From PVC group bacterium (GTDB lineage Bacteria; Omnitrophota; Gorgyraeia; B26-G9), in assembly GCA_024231215.1 (NCBI GenBank), contig JAAEQR010000142.1, forward strand, positions 420,593 through 484,592: DNA of 64,000 bases, written 5' to 3'. Shown piece after piece: positions 10,434 through 63,897 of this stretch (position 1 is the stretch's first letter; each line of letters begins with the position of its first letter). Both the position numbers and the translations under genes were made by a program. The notes beneath the pieces were generated by a model. The model searched no databases, was not told where the DNA came from, and was given only the letters and a program-made list of their open reading frames with translations.

Positions 10434-10468
10434 CGTATCTCGTTCCTCGTATCTAGTATCTCGTGTTT
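10434..10468. repeat. Heptanucleotide tandem mini-array (about 5 x CGTATCT-like) in the purL 5' leader, includes the RBS
   Basis: cgtatct cgttcct cgtatct agtatct cgtgttt. On the mRNA sense strand it ends ...GAGGAACGAGATACGAAA-ATG. Confidence 0.6.
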
Positions 10469-10493
10469 AAAAAATTAATTTCAGTTCCCGACG

Positions 10494-11786
10494 TTAAATG
10501 CCTACACGCTTAAATATTGTTTCGATATTGCGCAGTACATATTTCAGATCAAAACAGCGATCTAATTCTTTTTGGCTAAAAACTTTCTTAACATCTTCGT
10601 CTTTCCCCAGAAGCTCTTTAAAATCAATTCCTTTTTCCCAGACCTTAAGCGCATTCCTTTGCACTACCTGATAAGCCTTTTCCCGTGACAACCCTTTCTC
10701 TATCAAAGCAATTAAAAGCCTTTGTGAAAACATGAGACCTTTTGTCTTGTTTAAATTATTCATCATGTTTTTCGGATAGACGATCAGCTTATCAGCTAAT
10801 TCCGTAAAAAGAGTCAACATATAATCAAGTACTATCGAAGAGTCCGGGATAATCACCCTTTCTACTGAAGAATGAGAAATATCTCTTTCATGCCACAAAG
10901 CTATATTTTCCATAGCTGCTAATGCATTGCCTCTTAGTATTCTGGCCATCCCGGAAATCCGCTCACAAGTAATGGGATTACGCTTATGCGGCATAGCAGA
11001 AGATCCTTTCTGCCCTTTTGAAAAATATTCTTCCACCTCTAAAATTTCCGTGTGCTGTAAATTCCTGATCTCTGTAGTGAATTTTTCCAAACTCGAACCG
11101 ATAATCGCTAATGTATTCATATATTGAGCATGACGATCACGCTGTACAACCTGACTAGCTACCGGCTCAACAGCTAATCCAAGTTTTTTCAAAACCATTC
11201 GCTCAACCCTAGGATCGATATTTGAATATGTCCCGACAGCACCGGAAAGTTTACCCACACATATATTCTTCTTGGCCTGTTCTAAGCGCTCCAGATTACG
11301 TTTTGTTTCTTCATACCAGAGAGCGAGTTTCAAACCAAAAGTTATCGGCTCAGCATGTACATTATGAGACCGGCCGGCCATCGGTGTGTATTTATGCTTT
11401 TTAGCCTTTTTCTTCAGCACTTTCAATAACGCTTTTAAATCTGCAATTAATATATCCAACGCATCTTTAAACTGTAATGCTGCCCCTGTATCTATAGCAT
11501 CATTGGAAGTCAATCCCATATGAATAAAGCGGGAATCAGGACCTACGTTTTCGGCAATACTGGTAAGAAAAGCAATAATATCATGTTTTGTCTTCTTTTC
11601 GATCTGCTTTATTCGTTTGATATCAAATTTAGCTCGTTTTTTTATGTTTTTCAGGGAAGATGCTGGAATTTTACCCAGTTTTGCCCAAGCCTCACAAACA
11701 GCAACCTCGACATCCAGCATTTTCTGCCATTTAGCCTGCTCTTCCCAAACCTTTCCCATCTTTTCCAAAGTATACCTTTTAATCAT
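10494..11786 (-). CDS. purB: Adenylosuccinate lyase
   Basis: 430 aa. Fumarase/ASL family with the GSSAMPHKRNP signature. Confidence 0.9.
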   Translation of the reverse strand: MIKRYTLEKMGKVWEEQAKWQKMLDVEVAVCEAWAKLGKIPASSLKNIKKRAKFDIKRIKQIEKKTKHDIIAFLTSIAENVGPDSRFIHMGLTSNDAIDTGAALQFKDALDILIADLKALLKVLKKKAKKHKYTPMAGRSHNVHAEPITFGLKLALWYEETKRNLERLEQAKKNICVGKLSGAVGTYSNIDPRVERMVLKKLGLAVEPVASQVVQRDRHAQYMNTLAIIGSSLEKFTTEIRNLQHTEILEVEEYFSKGQKGSSAMPHKRNPITCERISGMARILRGNALAAMENIALWHERDISHSSVERVIIPDSSIVLDYMLTLFTELADKLIVYPKNMMNNLNKTKGLMFSQRLLIALIEKGLSREKAYQVVQRNALKVWEKGIDFKELLGKDEDVKKVFSQKELDRCFDLKYVLRNIETIFKRVGI

Positions 11787-11810
11787 ATTACATCCTTTCG
11801 TAAGTATATA

Positions 11811-12750: not shown

Positions 12751-12917
12751 GAAAATATCTCCCTTATAAGTGAATCAATGGAAATCATAATATTATATGT
12801 TTTTCTAGTATGTTTTAAATGTATTAGGTATACCTTATTATATACAGCTAAATGATACATCATTATAACCTATCTGTCAAGGGAATAAATCTGTTTATAA
12901 AAACCAAAAAATAAGGC

Positions 12918-12945
12918 ATTGACTTTCAAACCTTGTATGATATAA
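12918..12945 (+). promoter_or_regulatory. Sigma70-type promoter with extended -10, driving tRNA-Glu
   Basis: TTGACT (12918-12923), 16-nt spacer, TGaTATAAT (-10 at 12940-12945). The tRNA starts about 20 nt downstream. Confidence 0.5.
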
Positions 12946-12965
12946 TTTTTGAATAATAAGACTAT

Positions 12966-13043
12966 GGTCCCATCGTCTAGTCTGGTCTAGGACGCCAGAT
13001 TCTCATTCTGGTAACACGGGTTCGAATCCCGTTGGGACTACCA
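12966..13043 (+). tRNA. tRNA-Glu (anticodon CUC)
   Basis: 78 nt cloverleaf folded by hand. Acceptor GGTCCCA/TGGGACT with G1·T wobble. Anticodon stem CCAGA/TCTGG, loop TTCTCAT (CTC). T-arm ACGGG-TTCGAAT-CCCGT. Discriminator A, encoded CCA. Confidence 0.85.
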
Positions 13044-13054
13044 AAAAGAAAAAA

Positions 13055-13087
13055 GGTCACTCTACAGAGTGACCTTTTGCTTTTTGG
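13055..13087. terminator. Bidirectional rho-independent terminator (ends the tRNA-Glu transcript on the plus strand and the long minus-strand V-ATPase transcript)
   Basis: Stem GGTCACTC / GAGTGACC with a 4-nt loop. Flanked by AAAAAAGAAAAAA upstream and TTTTGCTTTTT downstream, so a U-tract follows the hairpin on both strands. Confidence 0.6.
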
Positions 13088-13201
13088 TTACTTCTCCAAC
13101 CCAGGGATTCGAACAAAAAGAGGATTTTAAAGAAAAGGAGCTAAAGCCGTTAGTCCCGCCGTAGGTGGGAACGGAGTCTGCACGTTAGTGCAGCGCAGTG
13201 C

Positions 13202-13456
13202 TTAAGCGACGTGAGATTCCCGTTGGGCTTTACTCTTGTAAGAATAGCACTTAAAATCATCCTCACCCTGTTGGTCTATACGATTTAGCATACAAAGAAT
13301 TTCTTCTTTTTTATCTCCATCGTACTTACACATAACACACAAACTCTGTTTAGGTACCAACGCAGGATTTACTGGCGTGCCATCATCCAAAAAATATCCT
13401 TCTAATTCTTCATCCATAGCCTTATTCCTTCGCAACAAGCCAAGCAAAGAGACCAA
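13202..13456 (-). CDS. Small Cys-containing hypothetical protein (last gene before the bidirectional terminator)
   Basis: 84 aa (71 aa if started at MDEELEGYF). Motifs CVMC...C...C, no recognisable family. Confidence 0.4.
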   Translation of the reverse strand: MVSLLGLLRRNKAMDEELEGYFLDDGTPVNPALVPKQSLCVMCKYDGDKKEEILCMLNRIDQQGEDDFKCYSYKSKAQRESHVA

Positions 13457-13461
13457 AAACC

Positions 13462-13968
13462 TTACAACTTATATTTAATCTGCCTCAGCAAATCCTTACG
13501 ACACTTAATATCTTCTTCCTGTTCTATGCCTTTTGGCTTATCGCCGTCTACTACTCCGAGAATCCCTCTTCTGCCCCCTCTATCTGCAACAACCACTTCT
13601 AAAGAATTAGCTGTAGCACAAAATATATTACAGACTTCCGGTACGTTTTTCAGGACACCCAAAACATTAATTGGATAAGCCTCACGCATAAAAATAATAA
13701 AAGAATGTCCGGCACTTATTTTGAAAGCATTATCTATCGCTGCCTTTTTCAATTCTTCATCATTTCCCTCATAACGAACAAGACATTTTCCAGATGCTTC
13801 GCAAAACGCAACCCCAAATTTTATATTTGGCACAGTATTTACCAAAGCCTCGTAAATGTCTTCTACTGTTTTAATGAAATGTGCCTGTCCGATAATCACG
13901 TTAGCATCTTTAGGAGTATTAACGTGAATATTTCGCATATCCATACATTCCCTCCAATATTTAAGCAA
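13462..13968 (-). CDS. Conserved hypothetical protein, possibly adenosine-specific-kinase-like (PF04008) family
   Basis: 168 aa. IIGQAHFIKTVEDIYEAL resembles what I recall of PF04008. Start overlaps the ntpK stop by 8 nt, so it is translationally coupled to the V-ATPase operon. Confidence 0.5.
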   Translation of the reverse strand: MLKYWRECMDMRNIHVNTPKDANVIIGQAHFIKTVEDIYEALVNTVPNIKFGVAFCEASGKCLVRYEGNDEELKKAAIDNAFKISAGHSFIIFMREAYPINVLGVLKNVPEVCNIFCATANSLEVVVADRGGRRGILGVVDGDKPKGIEQEEDIKCRKDLLRQIKYKL

Positions 13969-14413
13969 TAATTCCCTTAATCAAGAAACATGCAGCAAAC
14001 GCAACAATCGCGTATAATTCCGGAAATACTGCCAAAACCATTGTCTTTCCAAAGACATCTGAACCACCGGCAATTCCGGCGATTCCATTAGCACAAACTT
14101 TTCCCTGATAGATCGCAGAGATCAATCCAGCCACTCCCATCATTATCCCGGCTCCTAATAAAGCTGCTCCCTGCATTATTGTGATTTCCGGAGTTAAGAC
14201 ATCTTTTAATACAAAAAAAGCGGCAAATCCATATAATCCCTGTGTCCCGGGAAGAGCACTCAGCACTAAACAGCTTGCAAACGCTTCTTCTTTTCTCTTT
14301 AGCGCTCCCACTGTTGCCGAACCTCCAATAGAAGTTCCAATCGCACTACCACAACCAGACAATCCCACCATAAGACCAACCCCGATAAATCCTAAAATTA
14401 ATGCTAATGTCAT
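13961..14413 (-). CDS. ntpK: V-type ATPase subunit K (proteolipid c-ring subunit)
   Basis: 150 aa. Duplicated hairpin of Gly/Ala-rich TM helices (GIAGIAGG, LGAGIMMGVAGL). AGGAG RBS. Confidence 0.85.
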   Translation of the reverse strand: MTLALILGFIGVGLMVGLSGCGSAIGTSIGGSATVGALKRKEEAFASCLVLSALPGTQGLYGFAAFFVLKDVLTPEITIMQGAALLGAGIMMGVAGLISAIYQGKVCANGIAGIAGGSDVFGKTMVLAVFPELYAIVAFAACFLIKGIIA

Positions 14414-14489
14414 TTGTTACTCCTTTCCATTTATTTGTTTCATGTTAAATGTGTTATATTTAATGCTAAAAATCCTATCTTCTGTTTTT

Positions 14490-14517
14490 CTATCAGCCAT
14501 CAGCTATGAGCCATGAG
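14490..14517. repeat. Heptanucleotide tandem mini-array (4 x CYATSAG) overlapping the ntpI stop, upstream of ntpK
   Basis: ctatcag ccatcag ctatgag ccatgag. A weaker TNNATGT-period block lies at 14425-14452, next to the ntpK RBS. Confidence 0.5.
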
Positions 14518-16285
14518 CTTTTTTGAACGGACTATATGCCCTTCCTCCACCTTCAAAACCAGCATTTTTATAAAATTCCACAAACGTTAAACGCAACGGA
14601 TGCACAAAACTCGAAAGCGCTCCTAAAGCAAAATTCAAACTATGTAAAACAACTAATAATATTAGTGTCAGAAAAAAACCGATTATCGGAATATCTTTAC
14701 ATTGTAATGCAATACTATTAAAGACAAAGCCCAGTATTGTGCTTGAGATTCCCAACGCAAAGAGCCGCACATAGCTTAAAATATCACCTAAGAACCCGGT
14801 CAAACCTCCGTATAATTCCCAAAGCCCCTTACCGATTCTCACAAAAATATTAGCTTTTAGATCATTAAATAACAAAATTAATACTAGCCCGATTAATGCT
14901 ATCCATTGGGCCCATTGAGGCGATGAATTTTTCCCCAAATATGCAAGAACTAATGGCAATACGCCGGTAAGCATCAGCATCCAACCCCAAGTTGATAAAC
15001 TTTCCATCAAACCGAATTGACGTATCTTTCCGATCGCTTTTAGCAGTAGGCCGAAAAATATTTGCACAACTCCTATTTTAAGCGATAAATAAAAAAGCTG
15101 ATTCGAATTTAACAAGACCATTTCTTCAAAAAACTCGATATTCACAAGCTCGATTCCAAACAAGTTACCGCAAATAATCCCGAACAAAAAAGTAGAAACT
15201 CCAAAAATTGATCCTAAGATTAAAAATGGTTTTTTATCACAAGATACCTTTTTCCAAAATATTGCACAAATAAATAAAATGATCAATCCATAACCAGCAT
15301 CAGCTAAACAAAACCCGAAAAACAAAGTAAAAAACGGAGCAAAAAACGCCGTTAAATCCATCTCCATATATTGCGGCAAAGCAAACATTTTAGTTATCGG
15401 CTCAAACAAACGTGCAAAACGATTGTTCTTAAGTAAAACCGGGATCATTTCACCTTTTTGAGGATCGGAAGCTTCAAAATACACTTCTTTTTTCTCCAGA
15501 AACTTCTCAACTTTTTCCATAAGTTTTCGCGGCACCCAGCCGTTCAATATATATATATTTCCTTCTACCGCTGAGCCCAGCCCCTGGCTAACCGCAAGAT
15601 ATGCTCGTTCAGTATGTAAAGTATTCCAAAATTCGCAAACCTCATCAGTATACGCAAACAATCCGTCCCTCTGTTTTAGCTTTTGGCTTTTTTGAACTTC
15701 CAAATCCGCTAATTCAGCTTCCAGTTTTTGTTTATCTGTATGTGGGTAAAAAAACTCATCACAGTCCAGCTCTATTTTCTCCTCTTTTTCCAAAACAACA
15801 AAGTAGACATATGTCTTATCCCGGGATATCTCCTCATAACATATATCCTTACTAGCGCATACTTCAAATTTCTTTATCGGGGTAATGAAAAACCTCATAT
15901 TAACCCCTGCTTGTTTTAATTTTTCCACATATTCAATATCAAAATCACCCCAGGGAGCTAAATTACGCAACTCTCTGGATATCTGTTCATGCCGCTCCTG
16001 CATATGCCGCAATTCTTCGCGGATCCCCTCGTAGGACTCCACGTACGAAAAAACATCACCCTGTTTTTCAGAAGAGACATCTGCTTCTTTTTTATTCTTA
16101 CGCGCAATTTTTAAAAATGACTCGCAACGTTCAATCTGTTTCTCGCGATCTTCCAAATCTTCATTTTTTAGTTCTTTTTTTTCTAAGCTTATATGCACTA
16201 CTCCTAAATCCTGCAACGCAAATAAAAAATCATCTTTATCTTTATGAAAAATTAAAGCTGTGAGTTTTTTCATCGGGACAATCAT
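14504..16285 (-). CDS. ntpI: V-type ATPase subunit I (membrane a-subunit)
   Basis: 593 aa. Cytoplasmic coiled-coil N-terminal half, multi-TM C-terminal half with a conserved Arg-containing helix. Confidence 0.85.
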   Translation of the reverse strand: MIVPMKKLTALIFHKDKDDFLFALQDLGVVHISLEKKELKNEDLEDREKQIERCESFLKIARKNKKEADVSSEKQGDVFSYVESYEGIREELRHMQERHEQISRELRNLAPWGDFDIEYVEKLKQAGVNMRFFITPIKKFEVCASKDICYEEISRDKTYVYFVVLEKEEKIELDCDEFFYPHTDKQKLEAELADLEVQKSQKLKQRDGLFAYTDEVCEFWNTLHTERAYLAVSQGLGSAVEGNIYILNGWVPRKLMEKVEKFLEKKEVYFEASDPQKGEMIPVLLKNNRFARLFEPITKMFALPQYMEMDLTAFFAPFFTLFFGFCLADAGYGLIILFICAIFWKKVSCDKKPFLILGSIFGVSTFLFGIICGNLFGIELVNIEFFEEMVLLNSNQLFYLSLKIGVVQIFFGLLLKAIGKIRQFGLMESLSTWGWMLMLTGVLPLVLAYLGKNSSPQWAQWIALIGLVLILLFNDLKANIFVRIGKGLWELYGGLTGFLGDILSYVRLFALGISSTILGFVFNSIALQCKDIPIIGFFLTLILLVVLHSLNFALGALSSFVHPLRLTFVEFYKNAGFEGGGRAYSPFKKAHGS

Positions 16286-16872
16286 ACTGTCGCTGCCTCC
16301 ATTCGACGTTTTAATACTTTCTGGGAAGATTTGGAAAGATTATCTTCATCTTCCAAGTATCGCTTGATCTTACGAATAGTCTCTTCAAAAAAAGGTATCT
16401 GTACTTTTTCATACAAATTCACCTTTTGAGTAGTTTTGCGCCGGGCATATTCAACACTTTTTAAAATTTTTTCTTCGGTTAAATGTTCTACTTTTAATCT
16501 GATTACTTCTTTTATCTCCTCTCTGCCCCGTAATACCCAGGCAGGATAAGCAAATAAACTAAAAGACCCCGGGGGGAAAATCACTTCCTTTATAACTTTC
16601 ACCTTAATACTGGCAATTTTTTTGTCGACAAGATCTACTTTTTCCAGCCTTACCAAATCTGGAAATTCGCTCCATAACCGTTTCATCCCAGCCAGAGATT
16701 CTATCTTTGCCTGGACTTTTTTATCTAATTCTTTAATCCTAGCCCGAATCCGCTTTGTCTCAGCTCGTAAAGCAGCTTCTTTGCTTTGCAATACGGGAAG
16801 CGCATTCATGCGAATCTTCAAATCCCTATTTATCTGAATCAATGTAATTTTATTATATTGTATCTGCGCCAT
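16282..16872 (-). CDS. ntpD: V-type ATPase subunit D
   Basis: 196 aa. MAQIQYNKITLIQINRDLKIRMNALPVLQ is a typical subunit D N-terminus. 4-nt overlap with ntpI. Confidence 0.85.
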   Translation of the reverse strand: MAQIQYNKITLIQINRDLKIRMNALPVLQSKEAALRAETKRIRARIKELDKKVQAKIESLAGMKRLWSEFPDLVRLEKVDLVDKKIASIKVKVIKEVIFPPGSFSLFAYPAWVLRGREEIKEVIRLKVEHLTEEKILKSVEYARRKTTQKVNLYEKVQIPFFEETIRKIKRYLEDEDNLSKSSQKVLKRRMEAATV

Positions 16873-16923
16873 AATAATTTATACCAATTAAGAATTAATT
16901 TTTTATCTTTTTTTGTCTTACTA

Positions 16924-16944
16924 CTTACAGCTTATAGCTTACGG
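16924..16944. repeat. Heptanucleotide tandem mini-array (3 x CTTAYRG) overlapping the ntpB stop, upstream of ntpD
   Basis: cttacag cttatag cttacgg. Same motif family as the array at 58053-58087. Confidence 0.5.
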
Positions 16945-18270
16945 CTGCTTTTTCGGCCAGTATTTCTTAGTTATTTCTTCTTTAATTCCAACTTCTTCTT
17001 TCTTAAAATACGCCCCGAACAGCTTCCAGGAAGTATCAAGCATCTGATCAATTTCAACATTCACATCAATCGCTAATAATTCACGCGCATAATTTAATGC
17101 AAACTTCAGACATCGTTCATCATAATCGCTTAAATCAAATCCGTTTTCCTGTTTTGTTTTAGCGTTTGCCGCGTCCGCATAAAGACGTACACCCGCGTTC
17201 ATCACTTGAGGATGGTCTTCCCGACTGCGCTTACCAATAACCAACTGTTTCAAACGGGAAAGACTGCGGAACGGATCAACTATAACTTTGGAGATATCCG
17301 TATTGCGGCGTAAAAACAACTGACCTTCGGTGATATAGCCGGTGTTATCCGGGATAGCATGCGTAATATCACCGCCGCTTAAAGTCGTTACCGCGATAAT
17401 TGTAATTGATCCCTTTTCAAACTGCACTGCCTTTTCATATATTTTAGCCAGATCACTATAGAGTGATCCCGGCATACTATCTTTAGACGGGATTTGATCC
17501 ATACGATTGGATACAATGCTTAATGCATCACAAAACAAAGTCATATCCGTTAACAATACAAGAACATTCTCATTTTTCTCTACAGCAAAATATTCAGCCG
17601 CAGTAAGCGCCATATCCGGGATAAGCAGACGTTCAACCGGCGGATCATCTGTGGTATTAATAAAACACGAGATCTTTTCTAATACTCCGGCATCTTCAAA
17701 TACACGACGATAATACAGATAATCATCATTTGATAATCCCATACCACCTAATATAATTCTATCTGCTCCAGCACGTAAAGCTACATTGGCCATAACCTGA
17801 TTATACGGTTGATCCGAATCAGCAAAAAAAGGGATTTTCTGTCCGGTAACCAAAGTATTATTCAAATCAATTCCGGCAATACCGGTAGTAATCAATTCTG
17901 AAGGCTGCTGCCGACGTACCGGATTAACACTTGGGCCTCCAATAGCTGTTTTTACACCTTCTAACTCCGGACCTCCGTCAATCGGCTGACCATAAGCATT
18001 AAAAAATCTTCCAGAGAGATCAGAGCCTATTTTTAAAGTCGGCGGCTCTTTTAAAAATATAACATCCACATCATTTCCAATCCCCTGTGTCCCGGAAAAT
18101 ACCTGTAAGGTAACCAAGTCTCCCTGAATTTTCACTACCTGCGCCGGACGACCGTCAATTAAAGCCATCTCCTCGTTCATTACATCCTGAGCCCGTAAAG
18201 AACACGTTGCCTTAGTAATCTGTTCTATCTTTGTATATACTGTAGCAAAAGCTGAAGCCTGCCTCTTCAT
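16939..18270 (-). CDS. ntpB: V-type ATPase subunit B
   Basis: 443 aa. Non-catalytic nucleotide-binding subunit with F1-alpha/beta-like core. Confidence 0.9.
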   Translation of the reverse strand: MKRQASAFATVYTKIEQITKATCSLRAQDVMNEEMALIDGRPAQVVKIQGDLVTLQVFSGTQGIGNDVDVIFLKEPPTLKIGSDLSGRFFNAYGQPIDGGPELEGVKTAIGGPSVNPVRRQQPSELITTGIAGIDLNNTLVTGQKIPFFADSDQPYNQVMANVALRAGADRIILGGMGLSNDDYLYYRRVFEDAGVLEKISCFINTTDDPPVERLLIPDMALTAAEYFAVEKNENVLVLLTDMTLFCDALSIVSNRMDQIPSKDSMPGSLYSDLAKIYEKAVQFEKGSITIIAVTTLSGGDITHAIPDNTGYITEGQLFLRRNTDISKVIVDPFRSLSRLKQLVIGKRSREDHPQVMNAGVRLYADAANAKTKQENGFDLSDYDERCLKFALNYARELLAIDVNVEIDQMLDTSWKLFGAYFKKEEVGIKEEITKKYWPKKQP

Positions 18271-18281
18271 AATATTACTCC

Positions 18282-20048: not shown

Positions 20049-20077
20049 TACATCCTCCGTATGAATTCTTTATAGTC

Positions 20078-20878: not shown

Positions 20879-20884
20879 AGTTAT

Positions 20885-52048: not shown

Positions 52049-52122
52049 TACTTTTTTTTGCCTTTCTTCAATAAGTGCATAATTTACAGAGCAAAGCGAT
52101 ATAAATTATGTGCACGAATTGA

Positions 52123-52145
52123 ATCCCGCCGTTTTTTGGCGGGAT
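52123..52145. other. Perfect 8-bp inverted repeat ATCCCGCC-GTTTTTT-GGCGGGAT in the 353-bp pgk-upstream intergenic region
   Basis: GC-rich stem with a U/A-rich loop. No U-tract following on either strand. Possible atypical terminator of the upstream pseudopilin operon, or a protein-binding site. Confidence 0.3.
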
Positions 52146-52401
52146 AATTATCCTTATATAATACATACTAATTTTTTATTATACCACTCTAAAAGGTCTT
52201 TTGCAAATGAGGATATTTCCTGAGGAAGTTTAACCTAGAATTTGTATTAGATCGCGACGAATAGCACTAATCTTTTGGGCTCAAAGAAGCTACAAAAAGC
52301 CTCGACAAACAATAAAGTATGCCTGCGTTCTTTGTAACTTTTTGATCTCCAAAACATTAGCACTCTTCATCCACGTCTAATGCAAAATCTAGGTTAAGAA
52401 A

Positions 52402-52944: not shown

Positions 52945-52946
52945 GA

Positions 52947-54416: not shown

Positions 54417-54441
54417 AATATTCCTAACCCAAAATTTGGGT

Positions 54442-55512: not shown

Positions 55513-55521
55513 TTAACTTCT

Positions 55522-56175: not shown

Positions 56176-56248
56176 TCGTGGCCCCTTCAGTTTTTTTATT
56201 TACAATCATCTGTTTCGGGCGGACGCAAGGCCCGCCCCTACGGTTTTT
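56175..56248. other. GC-rich structured island between two pseudopilin genes: hairpin GGGCGG-N9-CCGCCC plus GGCCCC-N10-GGCCCC direct repeat and T6 tract
   Basis: Local GC is far above the window average. Oriented like an intrinsic terminator on the plus (antisense) strand; on the sense strand it is followed by an A-tract. Confidence 0.35.
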
Positions 56249-56756
56249 TCTGCAAAGGGTAGGCATTAGAAAAAAATCTTTTTGCCATGGTAGCCCTTTG
56301 AATGGATCGACTTTTAGATGCTTCATCCCATGAGATTGAAGCATCTACATCATACAACTCCTGGGTTACATCATCTAATGTCAGATTGATCTGCCAATTA
56401 AACCGCCGGCCATCAATACGTTCTATACCACTTTGCTGCGTAGCCAAAAAACTGCCCGAGCTCTGGTCTAGATTTTGCTGTACCTGCCAAATTTTTTCAT
56501 TAATAAAAAACTGCGCATTCAAACGATTGAAGAAAAAATTAATTGTGTCTAACGATACTAAAAATGATTCATAAATAACAACCAGACCTACAGCCAAAAT
56601 AACAACTGAAACCATCACTTCAATTAAGGTGAAACCCGCTGATGGCTTATGGCTAATAGTTAATAGCCGTCCTTTATCCTTAGATTTTGGCTTTTTTTTG
56701 ACTATGGACCATGGACTATTAGCTATAGACTGTTTAGTCCCAATTCGTAACATCAT
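56238..56756 (-). CDS. Minor pseudopilin (GspH/GspI-like), prepilin-type
   Basis: SAGFTLIEVMVSVVILAVGLVVI class III signal. The 41-aa leader in the track ORF suggests the true start is internal or non-ATG. Confidence 0.55.
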   Translation of the reverse strand: MMLRIGTKQSIANSPWSIVKKKPKSKDKGRLLTISHKPSAGFTLIEVMVSVVILAVGLVVIYESFLVSLDTINFFFNRLNAQFFINEKIWQVQQNLDQSSGSFLATQQSGIERIDGRRFNWQINLTLDDVTQELYDVDASISWDEASKSRSIQRATMAKRFFSNAYPLQKKP

Positions 56757-57138
56757 CGGTACTTTCTACCCCATCTTTACCTACTGAATAAAGATCATAA
56801 TCCTGAGGACGATGTTCCCCCGGAGACTTATATTCATATACTCTTCCCCAAGGATCTATCGGCTCTTTTTCTAAATAAGGACCATTCCAATTTATACCTG
56901 AAGTCGGTTTTGTCAATAGTGCCTGTAACCCTTCTGAGGTAGTAGGAAATCCACCGTTATCCAGCTCAAAAAGCTTCAATGCCGTAGCAATATTTGCACG
57001 AACATCTGCCCGGGCAGCCGAAGAACGTGCCTGTTCAGAACGTCCGGCCAATCGAGGCAGTACCATAGCCGCAAGTGCACTGATAATAATTACAACAAGC
57101 ATCAACTCAATTAACGTAAAACCATAATTCTTTTTCAT
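56734..57138 (-). CDS. gspG: Major T2SS-type pseudopilin GspG
   Basis: 134 aa. NYGFTLIELMLVVIIISALAAMV and the GspG hallmark DPWGRVYEY. Confidence 0.8.
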   Translation of the reverse strand: MKKNYGFTLIELMLVVIIISALAAMVLPRLAGRSEQARSSAARADVRANIATALKLFELDNGGFPTTSEGLQALLTKPTSGINWNGPYLEKEPIDPWGRVYEYKSPGEHRPQDYDLYSVGKDGVESTDDVTNWD

Positions 57139-57199
57139 AACACACCCTCCTCCAGGTAATAGACCTATTTTTTAAATACCATATTTTTTGAATTTTGAC

Positions 57200-58045
57200 T
57201 TATTTTAATATGTATTTCACCCATTTCTCTTCAAAATCAGCTAATGTACTCATCTTTGTGGGATAAGTATGGCTTAAAGCTCTCGCTATACTTGCGCCAT
57301 CTCTAAGCTGACGACAGAAAATAACAAAATCTTCCGCGTAATATCTCTCGACCAAAAAACCAACAAGGGAAAATGCCTGCAAATAATAAGCCGCGACAAG
57401 ATCACTGCCATCTACAATCTGAACATTTTTACCACCCAGAAATCGCAGCTTAACTTTTTGCCCTTGACTTACCTGTCGGATATCCATACGCATCATATCT
57501 TCCAAGGGAATTAAACGCCCATTCTGTGCCAGCTGTTTGATCATCAGCTTTCTTTCCTGCCTCTGCTGATGTTCCTCCCATTGAGCAACCCCTTCATCCA
57601 ACCAAAGCGGTACTTCTCCTTTAAATCCGACAAAATCACGAAATATCAAATGCGCAAGTTCATGCGGCAACAACTGATCGACAAATCCTTCACTCCAGGC
57701 ATAACTAATTATCTCTTTACGATTATAGTCAGCCATACCACGCGACCAGCTTGGTCTTCCTGAATCTTCCACATAGGAATCATGGTCAGAATGAATATAA
57801 ATTTTCACCCTGTCATCCCACTTCCAGAACCCGGAATACCGGACATATCCTAAATCATCCGCAATTGAATTATAATATTTTTCTGCCTTACGGGAAACCT
57901 CACGGGCAAAATTTTTATATTCACCAGATTTATAATAAACAATGAAATGATCTCCTTTGATCTCGGCCCAATCACTTTTCGCCTGTATCAAAGAACAAAA
58001 AACGAAAAAACAGAGACAAAAAATTACCAGAAATTTTATTTTCAT
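57200..58045 (-). CDS. Secreted zinc metallopeptidase-like protein (HExxH, peptidase MA-like), embedded in the pseudopilin module
   Basis: 281 aa. Signal peptide MKIKFLVIFCLCFFVFCSLIQA. HELAHL motif with downstream EG. Confidence 0.55.
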   Translation of the reverse strand: MKIKFLVIFCLCFFVFCSLIQAKSDWAEIKGDHFIVYYKSGEYKNFAREVSRKAEKYYNSIADDLGYVRYSGFWKWDDRVKIYIHSDHDSYVEDSGRPSWSRGMADYNRKEIISYAWSEGFVDQLLPHELAHLIFRDFVGFKGEVPLWLDEGVAQWEEHQQRQERKLMIKQLAQNGRLIPLEDMMRMDIRQVSQGQKVKLRFLGGKNVQIVDGSDLVAAYYLQAFSLVGFLVERYYAEDFVIFCRQLRDGASIARALSHTYPTKMSTLADFEEKWVKYILK

Positions 58046-58052
58046 AAGTTTC

Positions 58053-58087
58053 GCTTACAGCTTAAGGCTTACCGCTTATAGCTTACT
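58053..58087. repeat. Heptanucleotide tandem array (5 x GCTTAYN) filling the gspF-peptidase intergenic gap
   Basis: gcttaca gcttaag gcttacc gcttata gcttact. On the mRNA sense strand this reads as NNNAAGC with a strict 7-nt period. Confidence 0.6.
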
Positions 58088-58088
58088 T

Positions 58089-59312
58089 TTAGTTCATCAC
58101 AACATTAATCTGAAATACAGGCAGGAGCATAGCAATAATAATTCCCCCGATTATTATTCCCATAATTAAAATCATTATCGGTTCCAAAAGATTCGTCATT
58201 ATTTTGACCGACTCATCTGTTTCTCTTTCATAAGTATTGGTCAGCTCCTCCAGCACTTCTTCTAATCGGCCCGATTCTTCCCCCACACTTACAAGATTAG
58301 CCATAAACTTAGGGAATACAGGAAAACGCTTAAGCGTTCTACCTACAGATTCTCCACGTTCTATATCTGAATACCCCTGTCGCAATGCTTCCCGAATCAT
58401 TTCATTACTCAGGGTGGGAATACTTACTCTTATCGCGTTCAGCAACTGAATCCCGCTTTTTAAAAGCAGCTCCAGCGTACGACTAAAACGTGCCAGCTCG
58501 GTTTTAAGAAAAATCTCGCCAAAAATCGGCAAACGCAATTTTAAAGCACTTAACATCAATTTCTGCTTTTTAGACCGCATTCCATATTTTATTATCAGTC
58601 CAATTGCTACACATAATAAAACAAACCCTACCCATACCCATCCTTGACGCAAAAAATGACTTATCGCAATAAGTATTTTTGTCGGCAAAGGAAGATCCTG
58701 TCCTAACCGGGTAAAAATCTTGAGCAATTTAGGCATTACAAACATTAGCATAAAAACAACAGTACCTACCCCCACAACTGCCATAAGTAGCGGATAAGTA
58801 AGTGCGGTACGAACATTAGATATGATCTGTTCCTGCCGATATCTATATTCGGAAATTCTAAATAATGCTTCATCTAAAGTACCGCTATTTTCTCCTGTAC
58901 GCACCAAAGCAATATACAGAGGAGAAAAAATTTTTAAATACCCTTCAAGTGCAGCAGATAACGTCCGACCTTTTTTGATTTCCCCATAAATTTCATTAAC
59001 TACAGCCTTTAGATAATTATTCTCCGATTGCTCTGCTAAAACACCCAAAGCTTTTAAAATCGGAACCCCTGACTTAAGCAAAATTGATAACTGCCGCGTA
59101 AATACCGTGATCCGTTTTTTACTAACTCCCAGACGAAAAAGACCGCCTTTGGACAATGGCATTGCATCTGCAGCATCTGTCTTTTCAATATGCATTGCCA
59201 GATATCCCAGCTGGCTTATTTTTTCTATTGCCTCTTCTTTTGAATCAGCTTCAATCGTTGAATCAATAATGTCATTTGGTCCTTTTTTGGCCCGATATTT
59301 AAACGTACCCAT
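58089..59312 (-). CDS. gspF: GspF/PilC-family platform protein (second copy)
   Basis: 407 aa. Two GspF repeats, 3 TM helices. Confidence 0.8.
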   Translation of the reverse strand: MGTFKYRAKKGPNDIIDSTIEADSKEEAIEKISQLGYLAMHIEKTDAADAMPLSKGGLFRLGVSKKRITVFTRQLSILLKSGVPILKALGVLAEQSENNYLKAVVNEIYGEIKKGRTLSAALEGYLKIFSPLYIALVRTGENSGTLDEALFRISEYRYRQEQIISNVRTALTYPLLMAVVGVGTVVFMLMFVMPKLLKIFTRLGQDLPLPTKILIAISHFLRQGWVWVGFVLLCVAIGLIIKYGMRSKKQKLMLSALKLRLPIFGEIFLKTELARFSRTLELLLKSGIQLLNAIRVSIPTLSNEMIREALRQGYSDIERGESVGRTLKRFPVFPKFMANLVSVGEESGRLEEVLEELTNTYERETDESVKIMTNLLEPIMILIMGIIIGGIIIAMLLPVFQINVVMN

Positions 59313-61483
59313 TAATCCCCTCGCAATACAAACCTGTTCAACCTTGACCGCTCCACATTAGGCAAATCTAAAAAACACACAGCTATCTCATAATTCTTGT
59401 TCGGTACTATTTCTTCAACTCTTATTACCCTCGCCAGACACTGCACCGAAGTTTCATCGGGAAGTTCCAAAGTTAAATCAACCATCTCCCCCACAGCTAA
59501 ACTTTCTGAGGTATCGAATAAAAGACCTCCCGCACTGATATTCTTTGTAACCGCAACCTGTTCCGGCTCATACCCAGCGTTCTTTTGGCCTGTTTTAAAA
59601 AATGTATACCGCACATATACCCGATTATCGAGGCGTTCAAAAACACGTCTGTCAGCCGGATCAATTGAATCAATTTCCTTCTTAACCGGTTTTATTTTTT
59701 CAGGTGAGATCTTTTTCACTGCCGGAGCCGCAGGAACAACCGGTTCTTCTACTTCTTCCGCTAAAGAAACCTCATCCGCCTGAGTAACACGCAATATTTC
59801 ATCAGTAGTAGTTACTCCTTCGATAACTTTCAACCAGCCGCTTTGGCGCAAAGTTCTCATCCCGCAATTCACAGCGCATCTTTTAATATCCTCACTTGAG
59901 ACTTTCTGCAAAACCAGCTTTCTTATAGATTCATTTAAAATTAGAATCTCATATATTGCAGTACGACCATAATACCCTGTAGAATTGCAGGACTGACATC
60001 CTTTACCGCGGTAAAGTTTAATTTCCTGACTATGATCATGACCTAAATCCCGTGCAATCTTCTCTTTTATATCCGTCGATTCAGTAATTTCTTCGCGGCA
60101 ATGAGGACAAATAACCCGTACCAATCGCTGAGCAATAAAACATTCCACGCTGGAAGCAACCAGATAAGGCTCAACCCCGACATCAACAAGCCTGGTAATT
60201 CCGCTGGCAGCATCGTTGGTATGTAACGTAGAAAAAACAAGGTGGCCGGTAAGTGCCACACGTATTGCTATTTCCGCAGTCTCCAGATCTCTCACCTCAC
60301 CGACCATCATAACATCCGGGTCATGGCGCAGCATACTGCGCAATCCGCAGGCAAAACTTAAACCTACAGCCGGTGTAACCTGGATCTGAGTTATTCCTTC
60401 AAGTTCATATTCAATTGGATCTTCAATTGTAATTATTTTACGCTTATTTGTATTGATGCAGGATAAACAAGCATAAAGCGTGGTGGTTTTACCACTACCG
60501 GTGGGACCAGTCAGGAAAACTATTCCATGTGGTTTGTCCAGTAACCCAGTAATCGACTGAAACTCTTCCGGAGCAAGCCCCAGCCTATCTAAGCCAAATA
60601 ACATTGTAGTCGGTAAAATCCTGATTACCACACTTTCTCCGTAAGGAGTCGGAATAAAAGAAACTCTCAGGTCCAAAGTTTCATCCTGAACCTTAACCAC
60701 AGCCCGGCCGTCTTGCGGTACACGCCGTTCTACAATATTCAAGTTAGCCATTAATTTAATCCTGGAAAGTATCGGAGTAAGAAAACTCTTCATTTCCGGA
60801 GAAAGATTAGCTTCATAAAGAATTCCGTCAATTCGATAACGCAAACGGATCTTACTGCGATATGGTTCAATATGAATGTCTGTTGCCCGTTTCTTATACG
60901 ATTCTAATATTATCTGATTCACTAATTGGATCACAGACGCAGTGCCGCTCAAGGCCTCAAGGTCTTCTACCTGTTCTTCTGCTTGAATTTTTGTTTCTGA
61001 GCTTTCGTATGTCTTTTGGGCAATTATCTTTTCTAAAGTCTCCGCCCCAAGACCATAGTATTTCTTAAGCATCTCAAAAATATCTTCTTCACAACTAATA
61101 CCTATAGCTATATTAAATCCAAGCTGAGTTCTTATCGCATCCTGCTTTTTTATATCTAGTGGATATGCAACTGCAATGGTCAAAGTCCGGTTTTCCAGTT
61201 TTACAGGAATAAACTTATAATAGGAAGCAACTTTAACCGGAACTTTTTTAATAGCATTATCATCTATCGGAATTGACTTTAAATCTAAATACAAGATATG
61301 GAGTTGGTTAGCAATATTTTCTAAAAGCTGTGCTTCAGATAAATTTGCACGTTGAGCTAAGAAAGGAACAGGTGAAGACTTTCTGTTTTCAGCTTCCGCA
61401 AAACAAGACTGGATAGTTTTTTCATCCAGCAGATTACGGTCAAGCAATAATTGCGTGACAATAGTATTGGTTTTTTTATCCAT
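59312..61483 (-). CDS. gspE: GspE-family secretion ATPase with N-terminal MshEN-like domain and C-terminal PilZ domain
   Basis: 723 aa. Walker A GPTGSGKTTT. Zn-finger CPHCREEI...CQSCNSTGYYGR. A ~150-aa C-terminal extension carries PilZ motifs RRVFER (RxxxR) and NISAGG (D/N-x-S-x-G-G) about 30 aa apart. Confidence 0.8.
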   Translation of the reverse strand: MDKKTNTIVTQLLLDRNLLDEKTIQSCFAEAENRKSSPVPFLAQRANLSEAQLLENIANQLHILYLDLKSIPIDDNAIKKVPVKVASYYKFIPVKLENRTLTIAVAYPLDIKKQDAIRTQLGFNIAIGISCEEDIFEMLKKYYGLGAETLEKIIAQKTYESSETKIQAEEQVEDLEALSGTASVIQLVNQIILESYKKRATDIHIEPYRSKIRLRYRIDGILYEANLSPEMKSFLTPILSRIKLMANLNIVERRVPQDGRAVVKVQDETLDLRVSFIPTPYGESVVIRILPTTMLFGLDRLGLAPEEFQSITGLLDKPHGIVFLTGPTGSGKTTTLYACLSCINTNKRKIITIEDPIEYELEGITQIQVTPAVGLSFACGLRSMLRHDPDVMMVGEVRDLETAEIAIRVALTGHLVFSTLHTNDAASGITRLVDVGVEPYLVASSVECFIAQRLVRVICPHCREEITESTDIKEKIARDLGHDHSQEIKLYRGKGCQSCNSTGYYGRTAIYEILILNESIRKLVLQKVSSEDIKRCAVNCGMRTLRQSGWLKVIEGVTTTDEILRVTQADEVSLAEEVEEPVVPAAPAVKKISPEKIKPVKKEIDSIDPADRRVFERLDNRVYVRYTFFKTGQKNAGYEPEQVAVTKNISAGGLLFDTSESLAVGEMVDLTLELPDETSVQCLARVIRVEEIVPNKNYEIAVCFLDLPNVERSRLNRFVLRGD

Positions 61484-61550
61484 AATTATTCCGTTAATTA
61501 TAGTACTTTAACTGATATTTTCTTTATTATCACATCAATAACAATGTTTG

Positions 61551-62969
61551 TCAATCCAAGGCCCCGATCATGTAAAATTCTTTTTCTCCCCGCTTATCGA
61601 ATTCACCCGCCATGATCCGCTTACAGTCCCTTACTGTTTCTTCTACAGTTACATATACACCTTTTCGACCGGTATAAACTTCAGCTACAAAAAACGGCTG
61701 AGTTAGAAAATTTTGGAGTTTCAACGCCCGTTCATAATTAGTACGGTCAGCCGCCGAAAGCTCATCAATACCAACAACTAATACTATTTTTCTTAATTCT
61801 TCGTATCGCTGAAAAATACGCAGTACATCTTGCGCAATATCATAATGATAGTTCCCTACAATATCCGGATCAAGATTATTACAGGCAGATAACAACGGAT
61901 CTATCGCCGGATAAAGCCCCATCTGCACCCGTTCACGCGAAAGAACAATAAGCGAATCCAAAAAACTAAAAATAGCTACTACCGCAGGGTCAGTCAAGTC
62001 ATCAGCCGGAACGTATACTGCTTCGATAGAGGTTATTGATCCGCCCAATGCCTTTTCGGATCTGATCCTTTCATGAAAATCCGCAGCCTCAGATATTAAA
62101 GTTGGCTGATATCCGGTTTCTGAAGGCACTCTGCCTAACAAAGTAGAAATCTCCTGCCCCGCCTGTAAAAAACGAAATACATTATCAATAAATAGAAGTA
62201 CATCTTTATTTTGTCTTTGAATACTTTCAGCCAGGGTTATCCCGGTCATAGCCACCCCGTAACGCGCTCCCGGCGGTTCATTCATTTGACCAAACACCAT
62301 TTTTATTTTAGGCAATAGTCCTTGGTTCTCTAATTCAAGATAAAGTTCATTACCCTCACGAATACGCTCTCCGGCACCGGTAAACACACACGCCCCCTGA
62401 TGTCTTTTAACAATATGCTGGATGATTTCCAGGGTAAGAACACTCTTACCCATAGCCGCACCTCCGAGGATCCCGTTTTTACTTCCTTTTACCAACGGAA
62501 ATAAAAGATCAATAATTTTAATCCCTGTTTCTAACAGTTCTACTCCTACCTTTGCTCCTTCTTCTTTGCTGACTTTAGTTCCTTTGGCCGCACGACGGAT
62601 CGGCCGCATTTCCACAGAATTAATCGGTCCTTTCTGATCTATCGGCTCACCCACAACATTCATCAGACGCGTATACACTTCATCTCCCACCGGAATTTCT
62701 ATTCCACCACCAGGCACAAATGCCGGAGAATTCCTCTGCATATTCAAAGTTGAATTAATAGATATACAACGCGCGATATTTCCGGGAAGATGTTCGGCAA
62801 CTTCCAAAGTAACTTTTTTGTCATCAACTGTATAGCTGGTAATAACGTCAAAGACATTGGGTACGTCTTGCTGATGCGTAAATTTCACATCAACTACCGG
62901 CCCCTGAACAGCTACCACCCATCCGACAACCTTTTTCTTTTCCTGTTTACTCGCTTGTTTAGTTTTCAT
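61551..62969 (-). CDS. atpD: F1 ATP synthase beta subunit (divergent: P-loop GGAAMGKS, DELSAAD in place of DELSEED)
   Basis: 472 aa. LLFIDNVFRFLQAGQEISTLLGRVPSETGYQPTL and AGERIREGNE are beta-specific. Confidence 0.85.
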   Translation of the reverse strand: MKTKQASKQEKKKVVGWVVAVQGPVVDVKFTHQQDVPNVFDVITSYTVDDKKVTLEVAEHLPGNIARCISINSTLNMQRNSPAFVPGGGIEIPVGDEVYTRLMNVVGEPIDQKGPINSVEMRPIRRAAKGTKVSKEEGAKVGVELLETGIKIIDLLFPLVKGSKNGILGGAAMGKSVLTLEIIQHIVKRHQGACVFTGAGERIREGNELYLELENQGLLPKIKMVFGQMNEPPGARYGVAMTGITLAESIQRQNKDVLLFIDNVFRFLQAGQEISTLLGRVPSETGYQPTLISEAADFHERIRSEKALGGSITSIEAVYVPADDLTDPAVVAIFSFLDSLIVLSRERVQMGLYPAIDPLLSACNNLDPDIVGNYHYDIAQDVLRIFQRYEELRKIVLVVGIDELSAADRTNYERALKLQNFLTQPFFVAEVYTGRKGVYVTVEETVRDCKRIMAGEFDKRGEKEFYMIGALD

Positions 62970-63897
62970 GTGTCATCCTAGACGCGAAAAGCTCGCGCAT
63001 ATTTTGATCAACTATTTCATGTTTAGCGCGAAAGTATTTCAATTTAAGTTTTTTATCTAATTCTTTTATCCTCTGCGTGCAAAATTCAAGATGCATAAAA
63101 CGTGCCGCTTGTTCTGCCAAATTACTTAACCCAAAAATCTCAAATATCTTTTGCCCCAGCCAAAGATAAAGAAGGTATTCAACAAGATTATCAAATTTTG
63201 ATTCTAAAATAATCTCATTCAGCTCTAAGTTTGCCGGGCTCTTTTTTATATCCGGCACAAAAGGTAATACCTGTACCACTTCTACCCGCTGCATCGTAAA
63301 AGAAAGGGGTCTTGAAAAAACCAGTTTTACCGGTCCTAGTTTTCCTTGCAAAACATTATCTACGATATAGTCCCTTAACTGTAAAGCCTGTTCCAACCTT
63401 TTTTCCTGACTAATCCCCGGGAAAACCGCAAATACCATCTTATGTTTTTCCACGTATAACCTACCACGCTTGCCAATAATAATCAGTTTGCTATCCTGTT
63501 GCTGTACCTGGGTTAAGGCTTCATTCATAATCATAGCATTATATCCGCCCAAAAGACCAGCGTCTGAAGTTATCGCAATAATAGCTGTTGTTTTTTTAGA
63601 TTCGCTTACAAAAGGATGCTGTACTTTCTGCATATCCAGCCAGTAAAAAAAACTTTCTATCGCCTCAAGATAAGTCGCAAATGTCTTATTTTTCTTTTCC
63701 AAGCTATGGTATTGCGTGATCGCAATCATCTTTAATAACCCAATTAAAGATCCCAGCGATTTATAAAAATCCATATCTTCTTTTAACTTGGAAATTGAAC
63801 TCATAATATTTCGTATCTCGTGTTTAGCATCTCGTATCTCGTGTTTAGCATCTCGTATCTCGTGTTTAGTATCTCGTATGTGCGAGATACGATTCAC
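62959..63897 (-). CDS. atpG: F1 ATP synthase gamma subunit (probable true start at 63804)
   Basis: ITSDAGLLGGYN gamma signature. The first 31 codons of the track ORF read through 21-nt tandem repeats (HEIRDAK x3), and M32 (MSSISKLK) is the more likely start. 11-nt overlap with atpD. Confidence 0.75.
   Translation of the reverse strand: MNRISHIRDTKHEIRDAKHEIRDAKHEIRNIMSSISKLKEDMDFYKSLGSLIGLLKMIAITQYHSLEKKNKTFATYLEAIESFFYWLDMQKVQHPFVSESKKTTAIIAITSDAGLLGGYNAMIMNEALTQVQQQDSKLIIIGKRGRLYVEKHKMVFAVFPGISQEKRLEQALQLRDYIVDNVLQGKLGPVKLVFSRPLSFTMQRVEVVQVLPFVPDIKKSPANLELNEIILESKFDNLVEYLLYLWLGQKIFEIFGLSNLAEQAARFMHLEFCTQRIKELDKKLKLKYFRAKHEIVDQNMRELFASRMTHEN
63807..63892. repeat. 3.5 tandem copies of a 21-nt unit (3 heptads: catctcg tatctcg tgtttag) followed by an inverted copy (CGAGATACGA), immediately upstream of the likely atpG start
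   Basis: Copies at 63807-63827, 63828-63848 and 63849-63869, with a partial copy at 63870-63880. The 7-bp hairpin TATCTCG/CGAGATA sits at 63870-63889. Shares the ACGAGATACGAAA-ATG junction with the purL leader array. Confidence 0.7.

Follow-up and report, generated by a model that had tools for sequence, protein, structure and literature searches.

What are the tandem arrays of seven-nucleotide units that separate genes inside operons of a PVC group bacterium, how did they arise, and are they put to use in the mRNA? We analyzed them in a stretch of 64,000 nucleotides (nt) from this Omnitrophota genome (contig JAAEQR010000142.1, positions 420,593 to 484,592), hereafter the window, in which a sequence-only reading had listed nine such loci. 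We conclude that the arrays are the same kind of element as the short tandemly repeated repetitive (STRR) sequences of cyanobacteria and the heptanucleotide long simple sequence repeats (LSSRs) of prokaryotes, and that the phenomenon is not new in kind. On balance, and with moderate confidence, we favor the explanation that they are dispersed families of heptanucleotide tandem repeats, born by slippage, tolerated, and possibly used as intercistronic hairpins or spacers in the mRNA. Our confidence is high for identity and origin in this account and low for a putative function at the RNA level.

Tandem Repeats Finder (TRF), run on the window, returned arrays with a period of 7, 14 or 21 nt at 10433-10464, 14490-14519, 16924-16946, 23646-23677, 23688-23716, 46599-46636, 47781-47817, 58053-58086, 63807-63879 and 63896-63911. 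Repeats with any other period all had fewer than three copies. An independent lag scan with a threshold of at least 16/21 self-matches found nine segments at lag 7, five at lag 14 and two at lag 21, and zero or one at each other lag that is not divisible by 3. In 100 dinucleotide-preserving shuffles of the window, lag-7 segments numbered 0.09 on average and one at most, versus nine in the native sequence. Together, the shuffles and the comparison with other lags rule out chance or low complexity as the source of the arrays, i.e., tandem 7-nt copies are present beyond the length expected by chance, as is characteristic of heptanucleotide LSSRs. The arrays have 3-10 imperfect copies of their unit; as proposed, the 7-nt period is constant and the unit varies by locus.

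The preference for non-coding DNA that marks LSSRs was found as well. Eight of the nine lag-7 segments fall between open reading frames (ORFs), where inter-ORF DNA makes up at most 3.7 kb or 5.7% of the window (binomial p ~1e-9), and the proposed location at same-strand gene junctions was borne out. Coding sequence would exclude the arrays through its frame constraint, because 7 is not a multiple of 3. Of the nine loci listed before, the eight junctions stood, and the second blocks at 46650-46690 and 47838-47880 are likewise periodic (16/21 at lag 7). The weak ninth locus, 43418-43456, had to be dropped since it is without heptamer periodicity (9/21 at lag 7, equal to every other lag). An additional array, at 56637-56667, was found within the 5'-terminal part of a pilin ORF. 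An assembly artefact could be ruled out because two independent assemblies of one related strain, L001 (a metagenome-assembled genome, MAG, from NCBI) and L002 (a Logan assembly), carry identical arrays.

All 56 non-overlapping ORFs of at least 90 amino acids (aa) lie on the minus strand over the 64 kb. The mRNA strand is therefore the reverse complement of the window, and all arrays below are given as they read on the minus strand. Lying inside operons, the arrays should be transcribed. In the four array junctions that were scanned (positions 46000-64000), no promoter-like or terminator-like site was found with searches for sigma-70-like promoters and for intrinsic terminators on the mRNA strand, which fits co-transcription across those junctions.

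Four junctions, i.e., rny/ymdB, pilT/pilB, pilB2/pilT and atpA/atpG, carry a pair of inverted blocks. Between the upstream stop codon and the start of the 5' block there are 0-9 nt. The 3' block is separated by 5-12 nt from a strong Shine-Dalgarno (SD) sequence downstream at rny/ymdB, pilT/pilB and pilB2/pilT, and by 9 nt from an SD-less AUG at atpG. We hence confirm the layout proposed earlier for four junctions, namely stop codon, block 2, spacer, block 1, ribosome-binding site and ATG. At rny/ymdB, the 5' arm (block 2, 23686-23722) starts at the rny stop codon TAA 23722-23720 and consists of ACAGATT units (TRF 23688-23716, period 7, 4.1 copies). The 3' arm (block 1, 23640-23682) has TGGAATT/TGTAATG units (TRF 23646-23677, 4.6 copies) and is followed by the SD AAAGGGA and the ymdB ATG at 23624-23622. 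The GTG at 23660 is an over-call of the ORF finder for ymdB; the Pfam YmdB match begins at residue 16 of the long ORF.

At pilT/pilB, the 5' arm (46655-46690; GTGACAA ATGACGA ATTACAA ATGACAG GTGA; lag-7 16/21) begins 9 nt past the pilT stop codon TAA 46699-46697. Its 3' arm (46595-46646; CTTATAA CTTGTAA CTTGTCA CTTGTAA CTTGTCA; TRF period 7, 5.4 copies) contains a 14-nt higher-order repeat of 100% identity at 46599-46629 (TRF period 14) and precedes GGAG and the pilB ATG at 46585-46583. At pilB2/pilT, the 5' arm (47838-47880; GTGACGA ATTACGA GTGACAA GTGATAG GTGA; lag-7 16/21) begins 4 nt past the pilB2 stop codon TAA 47884-47882, and the 3' arm (47776-47818; ACTTGTA ATTCGTA ACTTGTA ACTTATA ACTT; TRF period 7, 5.3 copies) is followed by the SD AAGGGGG and the pilT ATG at 47764-47762. 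Variant units are common to the two arms of a hairpin, e.g., GAATTAC on either side at pilB2/pilT, as expected for an inverted duplication.

The atpG junction has the longest block. Its 5' arm (63884-63915; CGTATCT AGTATCT AGTGAAT CGTATCT CG; TRF 63896-63911) starts just past the stop codon TAA 63919-63917 of the preceding gene and is made of units complementary to CGAGATA units. The 3' block (63805-63880), which belongs to the family of the purL array, is built from a 21-nt super-unit, CGAGATA CGAGATG CTAAACA (TRF period 21, score 131), with 3.3 copies of 97% identity at 63811-63879. It ends in CGAGATACGAAATATT, and the downstream ATG 63804-63802 has no SD. Since the super-unit is open in the atpG frame, ORF finders call a GTG at 63897, which yields an N-terminus in which HEIRDAK is present three times. 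The match to the Pfam gamma subunit begins at residue 36, and ATG 63804-63802 is the plausible atpG start.

The bipartite junctions are predicted to fold into imperfect hairpins of 25-35 bp. On the sense strand we obtained -23.0 kcal/mol for rny/ymdB (z -4.14), -22.2 kcal/mol for pilT/pilB (z -3.18), -26.8 kcal/mol for pilB2/pilT (z -3.80) and -20.9 to -28.8 kcal/mol for atpG, the lowest value applying to a 121-nt region. An array that forms an arm of a long, stable transcript hairpin, as known from the Haemophilus influenzae hmw genes, was thus found in silico at four junctions (-22 to -29 kcal/mol). The earlier proposal of a stem-loop between both blocks was supported by these folds, with z-scores of -3.2 to -4.1 at three junctions, and does not extend to the four single-block arrays (purL, ntpI/K, ntpB/D and gspF/peptidase), which form no hairpin (-3 to -13 kcal/mol). 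We also considered an intrinsic terminator or attenuator and ruled it out: the stems are AU-rich, an SD lies downstream, and the four scanned junctions hold no terminator-like site. The purpose of providing stop codons in all three frames was ruled out as a general one, as purL and pilT/pilB do not have a stop in every frame.

The single-block arrays are placed either at the upstream stop codon or at the downstream start. The ntpI-end array (14488-14521; GCTCATG GCTCATA GCTGATG GCTGATA; TRF period 7, 3.9 copies; lag-7 17/21) spans the final four codons of ntpI and its stop codon TAG 14506-14504, and the SD and ATG of ntpK sit 80 nt beyond it. The ntpB/D array of the GTAAGCT family (16917-16946; GTAAGCT ATAAGCT GTAAGTA GTAAGAC; TRF period 7, 3.3 copies) begins at the ntpB stop codon TAA 16941-16939. 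The other two run into SD-less starts. The purL array of the CGAGATA family (10434-10470; CGAGATA CTAGATA CGAGGAA CGAGATA CGAA; TRF period 14; lag-7 16/21) has no stable fold (-3.4 kcal/mol) and leads straight into the purSL ATG 10431-10429, with no canonical SD within 12 nt. The gspF/peptidase array, also of the GTAAGCT family (58050-58088; GTAAGCT ATAAGCG GTAAGCC TTAAGCT GTAAGCG; TRF period 7, 4.9 copies), occupies the entire spacer from the gspF stop codon TAA 58091-58089 to the SD-less peptidase ATG 58045-58043 and likewise has no stable fold (-7.7 kcal/mol). The favored explanation would see in the single-block arrays unstructured spacers that in three cases replace a Shine-Dalgarno leader.

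The three SD-less starts into which arrays run, at purL, atpG and the peptidase gene, also lend themselves to another reading, in which the arrays are binding sites for a trans factor that reads single-stranded RNA or DNA in steps of about 7 nt, e.g., cold-shock-domain proteins or S1, and the start-abutting arrays are SD-independent translation leaders, as proposed for the TAACTGA repeats of Beggiatoaceae (PMC4679880), to which the purL, atpG and peptidase arrays are parallel. Unit families conserved between genomes at non-orthologous loci and the polarity of the arms, both described below, fit this reading. However, the window has at least five unrelated units in 64 kb, and relatives have others at the same junction, so that one sequence-specific binder cannot cover the arrays. 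Moreover, half of the arrays would be double-stranded, others adjoin stop rather than start codons, and no candidate protein was identified. We consider a trans factor of this kind unlikely.

The ninth lag-7 segment, the pilin-ORF array (56637-56667; CTATTAA CTATTAG CCATAAG CCATCAG; lag-7 17/21), corresponds to the GCTGATG family in reverse complement. Its position is within ORF 56238-56756, directly 5' of the prepilin G|FTLIE motif, and reads in frame as LLTISHKPSAG|FTLIE. Either the array codes for a portion of a leader peptide of unusual length, or the ORF start is mis-called and translation truly begins further downstream, at a non-canonical codon. In L001, a bipartite heptamer hairpin (CAGAAGT / ATCTGTC) is located at the orthologous pilin site (1036-1100). 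Across the window, the units fall into several dispersed families, as is typical of STRRs. Four of about five families occur at two or more loci within 64 kb: CGAGATA at purL and atpG; GTAAGCT at ntpB/D and gspF/peptidase, where the two arrays have the 13-mer GTAAGCTATAAGC in common; GTGACAA/ACTTGTA at both pil junctions; and GCTGATG at the ntpI end (as GCTSATR) and at 56638.

The internal structure of the arrays bears on how they arose. The 14-nt repeat at pilT/pilB and the 21-nt super-unit at atpG are signatures of tandem duplication, and arrays at other loci have stepwise unit gradients. Higher-order repeats of 14 and 21 nt point to growth by tandem duplication in multiples of seven. We propose that arrays lengthen by 7, 14 or 21 nt at a time through tandem duplication or replication slippage, that the second arm would come from inverted duplication of an array at the DNA level, and that arrays may last long at a junction while the sequence of their unit turns over.

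We examined syntenic loci from two relatives, 80 species-representative genomes and 80 metagenome contigs. At the orthologous pilB2/pilT junction, a heptamer array is present in 9/17 close Omnitrophota genomes, mostly bipartite and located between the stop codon and a conserved AAGGGGG-type SD. The units are unrelated: GTGACRA/ACTTGTA in the window, ATTCCAA/TTGGAAT in L001, GTAGCGA/CTCGCTA in L003 and L004, GAATACA/TCTGTYC in L005, GGGTGTA/CCCCACC in L009 and L084, and GCGTATT/CGATACG in L012. Overall, 29/131 same-strand junctions of 25-700 nt in the 17 Omnitrophota loci carry an array. The arrays are not confined to this phylum. Inverted-pair heptamers occur in Verrucomicrobiota (GGCTAAA/TTTAGCC, L028) and Nitrospirota (GGATTTT/AAAATCC, L036), and period-7 arrays are found in loci of Planctomycetota, Kiritimatiellia and Hydrogenedentota, too. 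In 1.0 Mb of non-Omnitrophota loci, the lag scan found 18 segments at lag 7 and 12 at lag 14, versus 0-2 at lags 5, 8, 10, 11 and 13; with 9 per 64 kb, the window is several times denser in them than this set. The description of the arrays as genome-specific is therefore refuted.

Two further observations were made among these loci. In the metagenome loci L109 (13700-18430), L143 (15580-20360) and L136 (2000-4070 and 14240-14345), one family pair, GAATGCA then CACGCAT or GATTGCG then CGCAATC, is used at five or more successive junctions, a density far above that of the window. In L010 (11060-11620; also L086, 1420-1990), the pilT/pilB spacer is expanded to ~560 nt, and the heptamer families AAGTAAA and TAGCTNA/GCTGATA are interleaved with GC-rich inverted repeats, an example of the size that these junctions can reach.

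Unit families are also shared between genomes. L012 (76% PilT identity) also has the CGAGATA family, with AAACACGAGATAC and AGATACGAAA among its sequences; there the family forms a bipartite hairpin whose arms come in the same order, but the junction is pilB/pilC. For general tests of cross-genome sharing (11-mers; 14-mers with up to two mismatches) the background was too high to convince statistically, and only explicit cases such as L012 are persuasive. One explanation for such dispersal would be REPIN-like elements or miniature inverted-repeat transposable elements (MITEs), i.e., non-autonomous mobile elements copied by an enzyme such as a Y1 transposase of the RAYT type. The recurrence of one family at distant window loci and the L012 copy fit this explanation, as does the inverted-pair architecture in intergenic spacers, which REPINs share. 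Against it, no conserved element longer than about 13-14 nt exists, boundaries are undefined, and filled and empty sites compare without target-site duplication. Copy number, arm length and loop are all variable, single-block arrays have no partner arm, and no transposase (RAYT/Y1) domain was found among the 40/57 window ORFs covered by Pfam. We regard mobile elements as quite unlikely.

Several results weigh against our favored explanation, slippage-born repeats with a possible use in the mRNA, or limit it. It rests on 64 kb of this genome and ~20 kb per relative. Slippage was not seen directly: none of 11 arrays differed in length between strain pairs of at least 99% identity, a small sample, and the copy-number variation that had been suggested as a check was hence not seen between near-identical strains. 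Local slippage alone is also insufficient for the same unit families at non-orthologous loci of different genomes. Regarding the RNA, the fold of atpG has a z-score of only -1.5 over 111 nt, and antisense folds equal or beat the sense folds at 2/4 bipartite window junctions. The one sequence test for selection at the RNA level was negative: there is no wobble excess on the sense strand, since in 17 junction hairpins the non-Watson-Crick positions comprise 32 G·U and 29 A·C mismatches besides 71 transversions. The lack of a G·U excess and the equally good antisense folds make the complementarity look DNA-derived and not kept pair by pair in RNA. SD and AUG are outside the stems, and simple occlusion or coupling is thus not supported. 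Finally, L007, L011 and L019 have a minimal pilB2/pilT junction of ~20 nt with no array, so the element is dispensable.

The constant array lengths also bear on the idea that the arrays are phase-variable contingency loci, in which copy number tunes the downstream gene as for hmw1A in H. influenzae. Heptamer repeats of hmw do act in this way (PMC12721329), and the window arrays are located just upstream of starts. However, 0/11 variable arrays argue against phase variation, short arrays (3-6 copies) with imperfect units disfavor slippage, and the flanking genes are housekeeping genes for purine synthesis, ATPases and RNase Y. We consider phase variation very improbable.

A stronger competitor is the reading that the arrays are purely neutral or selfish DNA, i.e., by-products of slippage and template switching that are harmless in spacers and have no role in RNA or cell. 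The balanced G·U and A·C counts, the lack of a consistent strand preference in folding and the empty orthologous junction in several relatives agree with it. So does the inconsistent placement of single-block arrays relative to stop codon, SD and ATG, and the exclusion from coding sequence follows simply from the frame. Yet pilB2/pilT is occupied in 9/17 genomes despite complete turnover of the unit, with most other junctions of these loci occupied sporadically or never. Arm complementarity of ~77% Watson-Crick pairs is kept across lineages, and unit families reappear from one genome to another at differing loci. In addition, the purine-rich arm comes first in 9 versus 1 of the skewed same-strand pairs (p about 0.02), cases that are not fully independent and in which the direction of transcription is confounded with that of replication in these strand-biased genomes. 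We regard purely neutral or selfish arrays as possible but doubtful.

With slippage-born, tolerated repeats as the favored explanation, bipartite arrays would form a long intercistronic stem-loop in the polycistronic mRNA. Such a stem-loop probably behaves like repetitive extragenic palindromic (REP) sequences and their mosaics (BIMEs) or the RNase III-processed hmw hairpin, and could affect stability or processing of the flanking cistrons. By this analogy, we infer that the hairpin may serve stability, processing by RNase III or the uncoupling of neighboring cistrons. It probably does not occlude the ribosome-binding site, given that SD and AUG lie outside the stem. To our knowledge, the hmw hairpin cut by RNase III is the only experimentally established mechanism for an element of this type.

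A bolder interpretation, which we consider rather unlikely, is that Omnitrophota and other PVC bacteria have in the bipartite hairpins a conserved device between cistrons. Selection would then act on position, on the inverted layout and on the purine-arm-first polarity, with the unit free to change, and a limited vocabulary of families would be recognized in trans by a mobilizing enzyme or by an RNA-binding or RNA-processing factor. Recognition in trans would account for the presence of one family at junctions that differ from genome to genome. If true, the arrays would be a self-renewing, tunable setting of relative cistron expression (pilB2/pilT/pilB, ntpB/ntpD and atpA/atpG), and they would offer a tractable way into the question why 7-nt repeats dominate bacterial simple sequence repeats (SSRs). 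We know of no explanation, since 2007, for the preference for 7 nt or for the general function of heptamer SSRs. What is new here is that the phylum Omnitrophota, together with loci of other PVC-group phyla and of Nitrospirota, is added to the heptamer repeats, that a single operon junction retains an inverted heptamer hairpin with its unit wholly replaced between genomes, and that unit families are common to genomes at non-orthologous sites. Any explanation must cover origin at the DNA level, persistence of sites, dispersal of families and the absent RNA wobble signature.

Pfam matches back the earlier gene calls and comprise purB, purSL, V-ATPase subunits I/K/D/B/A, RNase Y, YmdB, three PilB-like ATPases, PilT, two GspF/PilC paralogues, an MA-family peptidase and the F-type gamma and beta subunits. 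PilT (46697-47764) is 100% identical to a protein of the 'PVC group bacterium' MAG, and the next matches, 81-87% identical, are from Candidatus Omnitrophota, which confirms that the host is not cyanobacterial. The closest other relatives in the collections have at most 87% PilT identity. GC skew is -0.15 to -0.33 across the whole window, and tRNA-Glu(CTC) at 12966-13043 is the sole plus-strand gene. It is also the window's only Rfam match at the gathering threshold; the arrays match no family, and a known RNA family was hence ruled out as their identity.

We further noted that a V/A-type ATPase operon (K, I, D, B, A and a DUF2764 protein; 13961-21505) and F-type atpG-atpD (61551-63804) lie within the same 64 kb. 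The pilus cluster (41744-61483) comprises three PilB-like ATPases, of which the one at 59312-61483 has a C-terminal PilZ domain, PilT and the two PilC/GspF paralogues. The cluster also encloses two glycolytic genes, tpiA (49607-50362) and pgk (50867-52048), and its arrangement is syntenic in the related Omnitrophota L001 and L003. A 21-nt motif, AACCTAGAYTTTRYATTAGAC, occurs three times versus 0.02 expected, at 25342-25362 (minus), 52375-52395 (minus) and 52232-52252 (plus), the latter two copies being inverted to each other, with ~120 nt between them, in the long intergenic region that precedes pgk. This motif, which is unrelated to the heptamers, may represent an element of the MITE type, a structured RNA or an operator. 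Small unlisted genes were found in 12751-13461 and 31983-32220, i.e., a cysteine-rich ORF of ~70 aa upstream of the tRNA, and rpmE (L31), recognized from its start MKQKIHPEY...

Which known heptamer systems do the arrays resemble? STRR sequences of cyanobacteria were reportedly described by Mazel et al. in 1990, and the consensus units of STRR1, STRR2 and STRR3 are CCCCAGT, TTGGTCA and CAACAGT, respectively. With these units, no dimer match with up to one mismatch exists in the window. The resemblance to STRR2 that had been noted before is not significant: there is one 14-mer match, with two mismatches and on the antisense strand. TAACTGA dimers gave no match with up to two mismatches in the window. 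Sequence membership in STRR1-3, TAACTGA, GGGAATC or hmw could be ruled out, as none of them matched, and we found no literature that links such repeats to Omnitrophota.

STRRs had been named as the only similar elements, which does not hold: heptamer SSRs are described in many prokaryotes, among them Xanthomonas, Beggiatoaceae and H. influenzae (PMC4679880, PMC4692102, PMC12721329). Heptanucleotide repeats are the most abundant class of long SSRs in most prokaryotic genomes, and it was proposed that about 7 nt is the DNA segment held by the polymerase, which would favor slippage (Mrazek 2007, as cited in PMC4679880 and PMC4692102). As in this LSSR class, period 7 is over-represented here, arrays are mostly intergenic, their phylogenetic distribution is scattered and polymerase slippage is the proposed source. 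Unlike in our arrays, the inverted bipartite layout and the stop-to-ribosome-binding-site placement are not described in the survey as these two papers report it, and the survey predates Omnitrophota genomes. The heptamers GGGAATC and GGGGAYT of Xanthomonas and Nostoc are intergenic, mostly come as four units, are inverted in some cases (Rehm et al. 2015, PMC4692102), and have the same flanking genes in related species, with varying length and sequence (PMC4692102). The window arrays are similarly intergenic, with about four units and some inverted pairs. In contrast, the Xanthomonas and Nostoc units are G-rich and quadruplex-forming (PMC4692102), whereas those of the window are AT-rich, without G-runs and of many families. 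In marine Beggiatoaceae, 2-6 copies of TAACTGA are located a few nt upstream of start codons, and a canonical SD is rare (MacGregor 2015, PMC4679880). This parallels the heptamers before the SD-less starts of purL, atpG and the peptidase gene, but TAACTGA is a single unit found almost only in direct repeats, whereas the window has several units and half of its arrays are inverted pairs. A Nostoc preprint describes heptamer repeats near or overlapping start codons with modest regulatory effects.

Regarding the hairpins, REP, BIME and REPIN sequences of proteobacteria (for REPINs, PMC3116915) are likewise dispersed intergenic families, often within operons, with inverted pairs that fold in the mRNA. 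REPs, however, are conserved palindromes of ~20-40 nt, lack 7-nt periodicity and are RAYT-linked. No such palindrome was found in the window, where the longest sequences that loci have in common measure 13-14 nt and are built of heptamer units; the arrays conserve nothing longer than about 14 nt. At hmw, (ATCTTTC)n is the left arm of a 5'-UTR hairpin that is cleaved by RNase III (PMC12721329). The window arrays would, according to their predicted folds, likewise place a transcribed heptamer SSR in one arm of a long hairpin that precedes a start codon in the mRNA. The hmw repeats differ in having at least 11 units, phase variation, a non-repeat, G-rich partner arm and a promoter-proximal 5' untranslated region, whereas the window arrays lie between cistrons and have no copy-number variation. 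Compared with STRRs, the host is an Omnitrophota member of the PVC group instead of a heterocystous cyanobacterium, and the arrays are short (3-10 units). In architecture, the STRR analogy drawn by the sequence-only reading is nevertheless apt. Like STRRs, the arrays are made of tandem 7-nt units in several families per genome, occupy intergenic DNA including operon-internal spacers, have blocks that pair into hairpins, and keep their position between relatives as sequence and length vary.

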